From NCBI RefSeq assembly GCF_006345805.1, contig NC_043005.1, positions 46,252,001 through 46,316,000 of the forward strand: DNA of 64,000 nt, read 5' to 3'. Below, piece by piece: positions 2,272-55,913 of this stretch. The notes beneath the pieces were generated by a model that had not been told where the DNA came from, made no database searches, and saw only the letters and a program-made list of their open reading frames with translations. A program made the translations under genes and the position numbers. Positions within the stretch are counted from its first letter, which is position 1. Each line of letters begins with the position of its first letter. Source of the DNA: Octopus sinensis. Its lineage: Eukaryota.

Positions 2272-5200
2272 TATAATTAATTAATAAGGGTGAGAGAATT
2301 AGATACTAATTTAATAGTATATTTATTCAACACCAAGTGGCCTAGTGCTACGAGAAACCTGGATTATTATAATATTTTATAACATATTATAAATATTTTT
2401 ACAAAATAAATATAAGAGAGTGGTCACTATATTGCTCACTCTAGCACCAGTTAATCCAAAAGGTTTCAACCACGAAAATACATGATTCCCATGAAAGCCA
2501 GTACGACTGTTAGCTCACACGGACAGGGCAAGTAAAAAATAACAAAAATACAGATTATTTTGGGACAATTGTTTCGCTATTAATGAATTAAATGTAATAT
2601 TACTTACAAAACAATCCATTTGTAGCTCGTCAGCCAAGACTATCTGGATGAAATCCACTCAATCACACGCCAGATTTTACCATAACGATAAATACGCGTG
2701 TGGTTCAATTGATTACATCCGACTTGGTTGGGGCATTTGAATTATAACGTCGGATGTAATCAATTGAACCCACACGTATTTATCGTTATGGTAAAATCTG
2801 GCGTGTGATTGAGTGGATTTCATCCAGATAGTCTTGGCTGACGAGCTACAAAGGATTGTTTTGTAAGTAATATTACATTTAATTCATTAATAGCGAAACA
2901 ATTGTCCCAAAATAATCTGTATTTTTGTTATTTTTTACTTGCCCTGTCCGTGTGAGCTAACAGTCGTACTGGCTTTCATGGGAATCATGTATTTTCGTGG
3001 TTGAAACCTTTTGGATTAACTGGTGCTAGAGTGAGCAATATAGTGACCACTCTCTTATATTTATTTTGTAAAAATATTATAATATGTTATAAAATATTAT
3101 AATAATCCAGGTTTCTCGTAGCACTAGGCCACTTGGTGTTGAATAAATATACTATTAAATTAGTATCTAATTCTCTCACCCTTATTAATTAATTATAATT
3201 ATGCTGCATTTATTTCTAAATGCTGTATTTGTTTTCCGTGAAAGTTGGCGCGCTGTTGGTTGGGGCATTTGAATTATAACGTCGGATGTAATCAATTGAA
3301 CCACACGCGTATTTATCGTTATGGTAAAATCTGGCGTGTGATTGAGTGGATTTCATCCAGATAGTCTTGGCTGACGAGCTACAAATGGATTGTTTTGTAA
3401 GTAATATTACATTTAATTCATTAATAGCGAAACAATTGTCCCAAAATAATCTGTATTTTTGTTATTTTTTTACTTGCCCTGTCCGTGTGAGCTAACAGTC
3501 GTACTGGCTTTCATGGGAATCATGTATTTTCGTGGTTGAAACCTTTTGGATTAACTGGTGCTAGAGTGAGCAATATAGTGACCACTCTCTTATATTTATT
3601 TTGTAAAAATATTATAATATGTTATAAAATATTATAATAATCCAGGTTTCTCGTAGCACTAGGCCACTTGGTGTTGAATAAATATACTATTAAATTAGTA
3701 TCTAATTCTCTCACCCTTATTAATTAATTATAATTATGCTGCATTTATTTCTAAATGCTGTATTTGTTTTCCGTGAAAGTTTGGCGCGCTGTTGGTTGGG
3801 GCATTTGAATTATAACGTCGGATGTAATCAATTGAACCACACGCGTATTTATCGTTATGGTAAAATCTGGCGTGTGATTGAGTGGATTTCATCCAGATAG
3901 TCTTGGCTGACGAGCTACAAATGGATTGTTTTGTAAGTAATATTACATTTAATTCATTAATAGCGAAACATTGTCCCAAAATAATCTGTATTTTTGTTAT
4001 TTTTTACTTGCCCTGTCCGTGTGAGCTAACAGTCGTACTGGCTTTCATGGGAATCATGTATTTTCGTGGTTGAAACCTTTTGGATTAACTGGTGCTAGAG
4101 TGAGCAATATAGTGACCACTCTCTTATATTTATTTTGTAAAAATATTATAATATGTTATAAAATATTATAATAATCCAGGTTTCTCGTAGCACTAGGCCA
4201 CTTGGTGTTGAATAAATATACTATTAAATTAGTATCTAATTCTCTCACCCTTATTAATTAATTATAATTATGCTGCATTTATTTCTAAATGCTGTATTTG
4301 TTTTCCGTGAAAGTTTGGCGCGCTGTTGGTTGGGGCATTTGAATTATAACGTCGGATGTAATCAATTGAACCACACGCGTATTTATCGTTATGGTAAAAT
4401 CTGGCGTGTGATTGAGTGGATTTCATCCAGATAGTCTTGGCTGACGAGCTACAAATGGATTGTTTTGTAAGTAATATTACATTTAATTCATTAATAGCGA
4501 AACAATTGTCCCAAAATAATCTGTATTTTTGTTATTTTTTACTTGCCCTGTCCGTGTGAGCTAACAGTCGTACTGGCTTTCATGGGAATCATGTATTTTC
4601 GTGGTTGAAACCTTTTGGATTAACTGGTGCTAGAGTGAGCAATATAGTGACCACTCTCTTATATTTATTTTGTAAAAATATTATAATATGTTATAAAATA
4701 TTATAATAATCCAGGTTTCTCGTAGCACTAGGCCACTTGGTGTTGAATAAATATACTATTAAATTAGTATCTAATTCTCTCACCCTTATTAATTAATTAT
4801 AATTATGCTGCATTTATTTCTAAATGCTGTATTTGTTTTCCGTGAAGTTTGGCGCGCTGTTGGTTGGGGCATTTGAATTATAACGTCGGATGTAATCAAT
4901 TGAACCACACGCGTATTTATCGTTATGGTAAAATCTGGCGTGTGATTGAGTGGATTTCATCCAGATAGTCTTGGCTGACGAGCTACAAATGGATTGTTTT
5001 GTAAGTAATATTACATTTAATTCATTAATAGCGAAACAATTGTCCCAAAATAATCTGTATTTTTGTTATTTTTTACTTGCCCTGTCCGTGTGAGCTAACA
5101 GTCGTACTGGCTTTCATGGGAATCATGTATTTTCGTGGTTGAAACCTTTTGGATTAACTGGTGCTAGAGTGAGCAATATAGTGACCACTCTCTTATATTT

Positions 5201-5737
5201 ATTTTGTAAAAATATTATAATATGTTATAAAATATTATAATAATCCAGGTTTCTCTAGCACTAGGCCACTTGGTGTTGAATAAATATACTATTAAATTAG
5301 TATCTAATTCTCTCACCCTTATTAATAATTATAATTATGCTGCATTTATTTCTAAATGCTGTATTTGTTTTCCGTGAAAGTTTGGCGCGCTGTTGGTTGG
5401 GGCATTTGAATTATAACGTCGGATGTAATCAATTGAACCACACGCGTATTTATCGTTATGGTAAAATCTGGCGTGTGATTGAGTGGATTTCATCCAGATA
5501 GTCTTGGCTGACGAGCTACAAATGGATTGTTTTGTAAGTAATATTACATTAATTCATTAATAGCGAAACAATTGTCCCAAAATAATCTGTATTTTTGTTA
5601 TTTTTTACTTGCCCTGTCCGTGTGAGCTAACAGTCGTACTGGCTTTCATGGGAATCATGTATTTTCGTGGTTGAAACCTTTTGGATTAACTGGTGCTAGA
5701 GTGAGCAATATAGTGACCACTCTCTTATATTTATTTT
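2272..5737 (+). repeat. ~534-bp tandem array (about 5.6 direct units) preceded by a ~450-bp inverted partial unit, embedded in (TA)n; retrozyme/Penelope-like
   Basis: Marker GTCGGATGTAATCAATTGAACC recurs at 2749, 3281, 3817, 4351, 4885 and 5418. 2272-2723 is the reverse complement of 2749-3198. (TA)n lies on both sides. Confidence 0.95.
2834..2910 (+). ncRNA. Type I hammerhead ribozyme motif; repeated at 3367-3444, 3903-3979, 4437-4514, 4971-5048, 5504-5580 (+) and 2560-2637 (-)
   Basis: TTGG-CTGACGA-GCTA-(~42 nt)-TAGC-GAAA-CAATTG-TC-CCAA. Complete core, palindromic stem III ACAATTGT and GUC site. Stem I extends to CAGATAGTCTTGG/CCAAAATAATCTG. Confidence 0.85.
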
Positions 5738-5919
5738 ATATATATGTTATATATTATATATATATGTATATATATATATATGTATATGTAATATATATAT
5801 ATATATATATATATATATAATATATATATATGTATATCTATCTTTCTGTCTGTCTGTCTGTATGTATGTATGTATTCATGTCATGAGTTTGCATCAGTAC
5901 AAGACATCATAGATATATT

Positions 5920-6400
5920 CATTCATTCATGATATAATTATCATCGTTAGCAATAACTAGTTTTCGGATTGCTCGGTCAAAAAAGAAAAAGAAAAAAAGG
6001 TTCTTCAGAAGAGAAAAGTGTTTGGAGTGCCATTTTGACATTGCCCCTAATTCTGAAAGCTTTTCCACTGGTGAAGAGTTCAAGTGACCTGAATAAATAA
6101 AAACCTGATTGTGCTAGTTTCTGGCGAGTAATGGGGATATGATGTAGAGTTTTCTAGCCTAATGAATTTATCTTTTCTTGAGTTATCTTCACTGAATGTA
6201 GCCTTGCATTGTTGTGTCGTCGGATGACTCCTTTTCTGTCGATTAGAGCTTTTTTTTTATAATTTTATCATATATTTTTCCAGACAAAAGTTGATTGACA
6301 CGTTTAAGTTGTTGACAATAAAATCCTGCGGTGATGCTTTTCGCATGTCCCAATAATTCGAAGTGAACAATGCCTATTGTATTTCGCCATACTCACAGCA
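5920..6400 (-). pseudogene. Old mariner transposase fragment (C-terminal half)
   Basis: Minus-strand translation gives VWRNTIGIVHFELL..ITAGFYCQQL, RKGVIRRHNNARLH and HYSP..LAQSGFYLFRSL, which are degenerate HDNARPH and YSPDLAPSDYHLFRSL motifs. Confidence 0.8.
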
Positions 6401-55607: not shown

Positions 55608-55723
55608 TATCTGTAAATGTAATATGTGACAATTATTCGGTAGCCATGATATAACTCCGAGTTTCGGATGTAGGAGTTTTATCATGGCTACCGAATAATT
55701 GTCGTATATTACATTTACAGATA
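55608..55723. repeat. Hairpin with ~51-bp arms and 14-nt loop; fold-back of the element repeated at 55815-55920
   Basis: 55608-55658 is inverted at 55673-55723; the left arm recurs directly at ~55817-55875. Confidence 0.9.
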
Positions 55724-55852
55724 AATTCCTCTATTTACATAATATCGAGGTCTCTTTCATTCTTTTGTTGTCTTACCATTTCTATCAATATATATATATA
55801 TATATATATATATATGTGTAAATATAATATGTGACAATCATTCAGTAGCCAT

Positions 55853-55913
55853 GATAAAACTCCGAGTTTTGGATGTCGGGGCGGAAACCCACGCCGCCAT
55901 CTTTTCAGTTATC
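55853..55913 (-). ncRNA. Degenerate hammerhead-like motif
   Basis: Minus strand reads GATAA-CTGAAAA-GATG..CATC-CAAAA-CTCGGAG-TT-TTATC; the sister copy at ~55655-55670 retains CGAAA. Confidence 0.5.

Follow-up and report, generated by a model that had tools for sequence, protein, structure and literature searches.

Hammerhead motifs in an octopus genomic window belong to dispersed repeats, probably inserted by Penelope-like element proteins

The hammerheads, tails, fold-backs and (TA)n bias of Penelope-like elements (PLEs), and retrozymes, are already published. PMC4209133 and PMC7229834 describe animal genomes that each hold dispersed hammerheads by the thousand, divided among many families. 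The minimal and variant type I hammerheads of PLE pseudo-LTRs, as presented in the available part of PMC4209133 (Cervera and De la Pena 2014), resemble the octopus motifs in their many dispersed families per genome, an extra nucleotide before stem II, a palindromic stem III, a U3:A8 variant, opposite-strand pairs and a predominance of truncated PLEs. Octopus tails differ in length, ranging from ~25 nt (family D) to 130 nt (family A) versus the usual 30-40, and no cephalopod is named in that part of the source. The Anolis Poseidon element studied in vitro (PMC11167929) is also similar, with two internal reverse transcriptase (RT) starts 3' of the hammerhead, cutting and extension of both strands, and AT-rich targets; cleavage was not needed for insertion in vitro. 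The difference is that Poseidon is a coding element.

The window is a 64,000-nucleotide stretch of the Octopus sinensis genome (NC_043005.1, positions 46,252,001 to 46,316,000). A first-pass annotation of its sequence had listed 12 hammerhead positions, and every motif was found at, or a few bases from, its listed start. Each of the 12 loci is a member of a dispersed repeat family, designated A to L.

Family A insertion, 2272..5740: six 534-nt units in tandem (2724-5740), joined head-to-head to an inverted arm (2272-2723); seven hammerhead copies at 2633 (minus strand) and at 2838, 3371, 3907, 4441, 4975 and 5508 (plus strand).
Family B fold-back, 15439..15967, hammerheads on both strands: 15628-15708 (plus), A9 changed, and inverted copy 15512-15580 (minus).
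Family C, 19856..19970, minus strand: old, 72-79% between copies, not TA-associated; hammerhead 19856-19902 (minus), core kept, stems weakened.
Family D, 22062..22333, minus strand: 3' end of a coding PLE of Neptune type, truncated 5' and flanked left and right by (TA)n; hammerhead 22146-22183 (minus), U3:A8 core.
Family E, 24605..24956, plus strand: inverted tail 24605-24641, tRNA-like head 24644-24721, (AAT)n, body 24817-24956; 11-nt direct repeat at 24594-24604 and 24957-24967; hammerhead 24865-24910 (plus), minimal, decayed in this copy.
Family F, 27051..27245, minus strand: ~210 nt, related to G and J; hammerhead 27150-27184 (minus), minimal, intact.
Family G, 36029..36280, minus strand: old, related to F and J; hammerhead 36084-36117 (minus), minimal, GAAA decayed.
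Family H, 38367..38609, minus strand: part of a 352-nt circularly permuted unit, ~45-nt tail; hammerhead 38544-38586 (minus), core intact, U-U pair as stem II base.
Family I fold-back, 42662..43338: arms meet at ~43015, the left end being short and the right end long; hammerhead 42696-42777 (minus).
Family J, 43399..43555, plus strand: related to F and G; hammerhead-like motif 43425-43460 (plus), minimal, non-canonical core family-wide (without A6).
Family K, 52193..52563, minus strand: circularly permuted unit, as judged by eye; hammerhead 52470-52518 (minus), stem III long and palindromic, C3 decayed in the window copy.
Family L, 55592..55920: several short arms, 3' end of a coding Hydra-type PLE with a ~950 nt 3' UTR; hammerhead 55853-55913 (minus), decayed in the window copy.

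A type I descriptor found nine intact-core matches in the window (seven in A, plus F and H), versus a mean of 0.025 and a maximum of 1 in 40 local dinucleotide shuffles. A genomic sample of 599,700 bases contained 13 intact-core matches versus a shuffle mean of 1.3 and maximum of 4 (15 shuffle sets). The shuffled-DNA comparison proposed in the first-pass annotation therefore places intact cores well above dinucleotide-shuffled DNA in both the window and the sample. Allowing one mismatch gave 42 real and 28 shuffled matches per 600 kb, and this frequent matching of shuffled DNA is the argument for regarding the motifs as chance matches in AT-rich, microsatellite-rich DNA. The strong excess of intact cores and the conserved motif at each multi-copy locus refute that explanation, which we consider very improbable. 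The window was also rejected as a special hammerhead hotspot, its intact cores being only ~2-fold denser than in the sample (3 loci/64 kb versus 13/600 kb). An Rfam scan of the window returned no hammerhead among the matches listed (150 of 171, all weak); those listed were miRNA families only, driven by microsatellites.

A canonical type I hammerhead (CUGANGA..GAAA..UH or U3:A8, with stems I-III) is present at the family level in A-I, K and L. Every locus had been credited with a core and matching stems, which is accurate for the intact motifs of A, D, F, H and I, but the stems of C are weakened and the remaining motifs are decayed or non-canonical. In B, E, G, K and L the window copy has decayed, and other members of each family have the intact core. 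J falls outside the type I definition, with A6 in 0 of 24 copies among the matches listed. The stem II closing pair is imperfect in B, H, I and L; the U-U at the stem II base of H also occurs in the axolotl retrozyme. Because J is without A6 and several families have a weak stem II closing pair, their self-cleavage may be poor or absent. Preferential conservation of the core over its flanks was not general among the nine families parsed. It is clear in C alone, whose matches were ascertained on the motif region, and marginal in I (p = 0.025); differences in B, D, E, F, H and K are not significant (p = 0.07-0.46), the test of L is invalid as the flank overran the element, and G was not parsed. 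The loci at 27151 and 43425 (F and J) had been thought the only pair alike in sequence, but G is also related to both (z 9-10), making three loci.

The siting of most motifs in microsatellites was partly borne out: most families favor (TA)n, but E, C and G do not. A (TA)5 tract lies within 150 nt of the match 3' end in D (19/19), F (13/15), H (12/15), L (11/13), B (8/13), I (8/13), K (2/13), C (0/13) and G (0/13), and the background frequency is 268/2400. The outer flanks of E are microsatellite in just 3 of 56 cases, its (AAT)n being internal. Microsatellite association is a family-specific property. Fold-back architecture, previously claimed for several loci, can be maintained for A, B, E, I and L. 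An inverted 5'-truncated arm with a one-sided tail is visible by eye in B, D, H, I and L.

Upstream sequence connects D, I and L to coding PLEs. Same-strand upstream PLE protein matches occur at six of 20 D loci. Family I is classified as the 3' end of a PLE that encodes a Hydra-type endonuclease and has a long 3' UTR; the endonuclease is found at locus L387 and its last codons at three further loci. Two other coding links for I were rejected: at L213 the endonuclease is separated by (TA)n and another repeat, and L391 is a chimera with another PLE's endonuclease joined where other I copies continue differently. For family L, the endonuclease is contiguous down to the hammerhead at locus L406 and is also carried by L407 and L408 (3/20 upstream-walk loci). 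It has the CxCX5C linker and lacks CCHH, which is the Hydra description (PMC8557442). D, I and L resemble the Neptune and Hydra PLEs (Craig et al. 2021, PMC8557442) in a C-terminal GIY-YIG, a cysteine linker, an inverted truncated copy, a one-sided tail and (TA)n targets; these clade calls derive from endonuclease motifs, not an RT tree. As truncated ends of coding PLEs, D, I and L would have been moved in cis by their own PLE.

The proposal of a single non-coding mobilome moved in trans fails on these loci, since at least three of the 12 are truncated coding PLE ends, as are 2 of the 14 high-scoring hammerheads in the 600-kb sample. The proposed link to PLEs and retrozymes holds. No PLE-coding DNA was found in the window, as predicted, and autonomous PLEs with RT and GIY-YIG are present elsewhere in the genome, with intact ORFs of 775 and 780 aa; one intact-ORF family has the U3:A8 core, as in D. 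The expected adjacency of hammerheads and PLE ORFs applies to D, I and L but not to A, E, H and K, for which the loci examined had no adjoining same-strand coding DNA. No coding DNA was seen in the 1.5-kb flanks of B, C, F and G (14-16 loci each). Neptune-type, Hydra-type and one unplaced-family queries found no Poseidon-clade protein, and the window families have no 3' sequence in common with two endonuclease-retrieved PLE families. An autonomous partner with the same 3' sequence as A, E, H or K was absent from the best 40 candidates per search; the tail region of A retrieved the A family itself only, as did the body of E for its own family.

Family A is assigned to the non-coding, circularly permuted retrozyme type. 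Each unit has a type I hammerhead with an extended stem I, a long stem II and a 6-nt palindromic stem III. H is likewise of the non-coding retrozyme type, and its copies are 95-99% identical to each other. The circular permutation closes each A and H unit on itself without coding DNA. K is classed as a non-coding retrozyme-type repeat on a permutation read by eye. A short, low-complexity match of 26 nt between H and sequence near one PLE was not taken as homology. A (534 nt) and H (352 nt) resemble metazoan non-LTR retrozymes (PMC7229834; bioRxiv 10.64898/2026.07.22.740005) in being short non-coding tandem units with a type I hammerhead each and a well-paired predicted circle (folding z of the circular monomer -5.7 for A and -6.7 for H). 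Unlike those retrozymes, A arrays are dispersed two-armed PLE-type (TA)n insertions with per-array haplotypes.

The window A insertion has (TA)n at both flanks, with the long end on the left (unit position 483) and the short end on the right (~353). Among 21 arrays examined, chosen as best matches, all 17 two-armed arrays with both ends visible have one long and one short end. Differences at shared variant sites average 0.30 inside arrays versus 3.83 between them, 72 variant-by-array cells are fixed and six segregate, and there are 15 haplotypes across the 21 arrays. Both arms have the same haplotype in 12 of 16 arrays and differ in four, and one array (L128) is a mixture of two haplotypes. 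The arms traverse up to 10 cleavage sites, and 0 of 39 inner ends lie within 20 nt of one. All units of an array, and usually both arms, having one haplotype fits a monomeric RNA template, which was likely circular. Family A sequence occurs in 20 of 22 runs whose type is guessed or unknown, and was not counted as evidence of expression. Contigs from four runs contain the unit, the joint from one unit to the next and the TA junction at either end, but give no start, end, strand or level.

Family E is short, non-coding and dispersed, with target-site duplications: direct repeats of ≥8 nt flank 15 of 28 insertions versus 1.6% of 756 mismatched pairs. The best alignment of its head is to tRNA-Arg(TCT) (z 7.9; 27 tRNAs of six amino-acid types), with a B-box in 8 and an A-box-like motif in 7 of 11. 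The head is at the 5' end of the element, no common sequence lying upstream of it in the loci examined. ARAGORN called the head tRNA-like in only 2 of 16 copies, and Rfam gave it no tRNA match. The lack of T4 runs was discarded as a Pol III sign; it holds in 16/16 copies but also in 57% of shuffles. One long and one short end were found in 20 of 22 two-armed insertions, with no long/long or short/short case. The 3' ends sit at two fixed PLE-type sites and not at LINE-like simple-repeat-tailed ends. E resembles the Schistosoma Sm-alpha/Sj-alpha hammerhead SINEs (reviewed in PMC6765202), which are short and non-coding with a Pol III-type promoter and a hammerhead. Those are tandem and cleavage-released, whereas E is non-tandem (0 full and one partial tandem in 38 loci), has a minimal hammerhead mid-element, forms fold-back dimers, and has two ends of PLE type and target duplications of 8-14 nt. 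E is a SINE-like repeat with PLE insertion anatomy, likely borrowing PLE enzymes in trans. In the main texts of mostly open-access papers, neither a tRNA SINE driven by a PLE nor a survey of hammerheads in octopus was found; an octopus repeat study (PMC13282606) reports 893 unclassified SINE families, and the word ribozyme is absent from its main text. Cephalopod families may be included in the supplements to PMC8557442 and PMC4209133.

These data are best explained by 12 dispersed repeat ends with hammerhead motifs that were, with good probability, all inserted by PLE proteins, encoded by the element in D, I and L and likely supplied in trans to A, H, K and E. A PLE RT-endonuclease would cut both strands of AT-rich DNA, which is (TA)n for most families. 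Two internal positions in the RNA, on the 3' side of the hammerhead, would serve as starts of reverse transcription, and two cDNA arms, one ending at the long site and the other at the short site, would join head-to-head. The long and short ends in A and E agree with a tail that provides two start sites for RT (PMC11167929). For A, we lean slightly toward rolling-circle reverse transcription of a ribozyme-released monomeric circle. E is copied from uncleaved RNA, as full-length copies span the cleavage site; this RNA is likely a Pol III transcript, and the hammerhead region is likely a PLE recognition signal.

Another explanation makes all loci truncated 3' ends (pseudo-LTRs) of coding PLEs, without movement in trans, and the tandem arrays a later DNA-level amplification. 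Such ends are demonstrated for D, I and L and for the 2/14 sample hammerheads; I and L seemed non-coding until a 1-1.5 kb upstream walk, so that the same may prove true of B, C, F, G and J, and a satellite-birth route of this kind has been proposed (bioRxiv 10.64898/2026.07.22.740005). However, A and H units are circularly permuted without coding DNA, and E ends at a tRNA head. Young A arrays are on many chromosomes, and the presence of both PLE ends in (TA)n at each of them points to separate insertions. We regard this explanation as unlikely.

A stronger competitor, although still doubtful, accepts movement of A in trans but from uncleaved linear multimers or by template jumping, with no circle and the hammerhead only a protein-binding structure. 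The main in vitro substrate was uncleaved RNA (PMC11167929), E and J spread without apparent cleavage, homogeneous source arrays would yield uniform daughters from multimers too, and L128 holds two templates within one array. Against linear templates, array-specific variants that are fixed in up to eight units and in both arms require a bottleneck of a single unit and then re-expansion. A retains a canonical core and palindromic stem III in tandem, its predicted circle folds stably, and circRNAs are known for mussel, coral and axolotl retrozymes (PMC7229834).

Work on PLEs has yet to settle whether retrozymes transpose via circles and what the pseudo-LTR hammerhead does. With its young, multi-unit arrays, family A allows a bottleneck of one unit to be looked for directly in the haplotypes, and it is small enough for in vitro work. 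The intact-core motifs imply roughly 50,000 genome-wide, a rough figure from ~12 above chance per 0.6 Mb. It is plausible, if a little short of an even chance, that E is a true tRNA-derived SINE mobilized by PLEs, not LINEs, in thousands to tens of thousands of copies, and that with A it represents two parasitic routes on the same machinery in one genome. The routes would be rolling-circle copying of a ribozyme-made circle for A and an uncleaved Pol III RNA, with the hammerhead as a recognition fold only, for E. If true, the pairing of a tRNA head with PLE borrowing would be unusual, E would provide a minimal RNA of ~330 nt that defines PLE protein requirements, and parasitism of the SINE-LINE type would extend to PLEs.

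The first-pass annotation had read the hammerheads of the window as a non-coding mobilome concentrated in microsatellites and moved in trans by Penelope-like elements (PLEs) encoded elsewhere. This interpretation is half right: the elements belong to the PLE system, but they combine truncated coding elements with retrozymes and a single SINE-like chimera. All twelve motifs were confirmed at their positions, and no PLE-coding DNA was found within the 64 kb, as had been proposed. The expected excess over shuffled sequence holds with a type I descriptor, which gives 9 intact-core matches in the window versus 0.025 per shuffle (40 shuffles) and 13 versus 1.3 in a genomic sample of 60 evenly placed 10-kb stretches from the 2.72-Gb assembly that contains the window. 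A one-mismatch descriptor is far noisier (42 in the sample versus 28 in shuffles). Microsatellites are abundant in the window, and (TA)6 lies within 300 nt of 9/15 high-scoring sample matches versus 28% of random positions. Flanks of family E are rarely microsatellite. Other features of the window are as follows.

7402-7740 and 38652-38868: related repeats M and N, CUGANGA start conserved, second core half not clear; common in the genomic sample
38292-38372: small abundant repeat in (TA)n adjoining family H, with stem II, GAAA and UH and without the CUGANGA half; 8 copies among those listed
302-1159, 23005-23814, 14462-14884 and 57769-58140: transposase-like frames, a helicase fragment and a further fragment, which from their translations we take to be mariner-type (twice), Helitron-like and piggyBac-like
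52020-52119: assembly gap of 100 bases directly beyond family K

Every one of the twelve loci is a member of a repeat family (A to L). The numbers of first-look candidates, not to be read as copy numbers, are A 842, B 930, C 38, D 2593, E 4732, F 1515, G 51, H 2777, I 2589, K 481 and L 2138; J is known only from loci retrieved for other families. For B, E, G, K and L the family motif is intact but has decayed in the copy within the window. The J core is non-canonical in all 24 copies listed, and families F, G and J are related to one another. Other fixed-looking core changes (U4 to C, G5 to A) in F-related copies at loci L078, L087 and L084 suggest successful families with non-canonical cores. 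Preferential conservation of the core over its flank is clear in C (5/130 versus 272/1266), marginal in I and absent in six families; the comparison is invalid for L, and G was not parsed.

Movement of non-coding elements in trans fails for at least three loci because D, I and L run upstream into endonuclease DNA. Neptune-type endonuclease DNA lies upstream in 6/20 D loci. I and L appear non-coding at first look, and upstream walking reached endonuclease DNA of another type than that of D, at L387 for I and at L406-L408 for L; at L406 endonuclease and hammerhead are contiguous over ~950 nt. In the L protein the linker is CxCX5C and CCHH is absent, as in the Hydra clade described in PMC8557442. 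Endonuclease DNA is also upstream of 2/14 strong hammerheads in the genomic sample. At L391:815-2676, a short shared word joins the family I 3' UTR to the endonuclease end of another PLE family, which resembles template switching from one PLE RNA to a different one. An inverted D arm at L047:355-1495 departs from D sequence right after AG and continues into PLE ORF sequence that codes for the N-terminal part, a possible splice or tandem junction.

Genome-wide there are 5029 first-look GIY-YIG candidates, with a longest open frame of 883 aa among those scored; a second PLE family has 5183. ORFs of 775 and 780 aa each match RVT_1 and GIY-YIG, and by the clade features given in PMC8557442 their cysteine linker is Neptune-type. 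The 780-aa family terminates 3' in a hammerhead with a U3:A8 core, a variant described in PMC4209133. Coding PLE families at L315, L316, L321, L026 and L031 have 3' ends without a full hammerhead by descriptor, some with the GAAA half only.

Family A has a 534-nt unit found at 96-100% identity on many contigs. The window array and 20 arrays chosen among the best matches were compared. Both head-to-head cDNA arms with both ends are visible in 17/21, and all 17 lie in (TA)n and have one end within unit positions 480-488 and one near 353. These positions give a tail 3' of the hammerhead of ~130 nt, compared with the 30-40 bp described for PLEs in PMC8557442. According to PMC11167929, such tails correspond to two internal sites at which RT starts, and both DNA strands are cut and extended; this would explain the anatomy of A insertions. 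Family H is a permuted 352-nt unit with a 45-nt tail, and K, read by eye, is also permuted. The three families fit non-LTR retrozymes as described in PMC7229834, with circularity here predicted. Their stem III and tail lengths are closer to Hydra-type than to Neptune-type ends, which points weakly toward a partner of Hydra type. A further tandem hammerhead repeat lies at L317:6728-7681 (three copies, spacing ~476 nt).

A units differ by 0.30 within arrays versus 3.83 between them. The 21 arrays carry 15 haplotypes, with 72 fixed versus 6 segregating variant cells; arms agree in 12/16 arrays, and L128 is of mixed haplotype. Variants fixed over up to 8 units require a one-unit bottleneck. A circle would provide it most simply, and good folding is predicted for the circle. 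Template jumping may give the same result, as may later amplification at the DNA level, proposed in bioRxiv 10.64898/2026.07.22.740005. A cleaved linear monomer as template is argued against by the lack of inner arm ends near the cleavage site.

In family E (~330 nt) a tRNA-like head is followed by (AAT)n and then by a body containing a minimal hammerhead. The head scores z = 7.9 against tRNA-Arg(TCT) among 27 tRNAs of this genome covering only six amino-acid types, and 8/11 copies have a B-box; ARAGORN and Rfam support for a tRNA is weak. Copies start at head positions 1-13 in 25/39 cases, with no common sequence upstream in the loci viewed. At L273 and L274 the internal (AAT)n contains, in place of the head, a LINE-like 3' end, presumably of a Dong/R4-like element. 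One long and one short end occur in 20/22 two-armed insertions, and direct repeats of at least 8 nt flank 15/28 insertions versus 1.6% of controls. Six body matches in 4/60 sampled stretches put the genome-wide copy number at a rough order of 10,000. Full-length E copies extend over the cleavage site and are not arranged in tandem, so the template of E was uncleaved RNA, in agreement with the in vitro dispensability of cleavage reported in PMC11167929. The closest precedent, the Schistosoma hammerhead SINE, is in contrast tandem and cleavage-released as reviewed in PMC6765202. A search for an autonomous partner of E found none among the best 40 candidates scored, and a PLE-driven tRNA SINE was not found in the literature searched, a library of limited coverage.

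The general picture of hammerhead-bearing PLE-system elements is already published; the parts worth following are the array-haplotype evidence from family A and family E.
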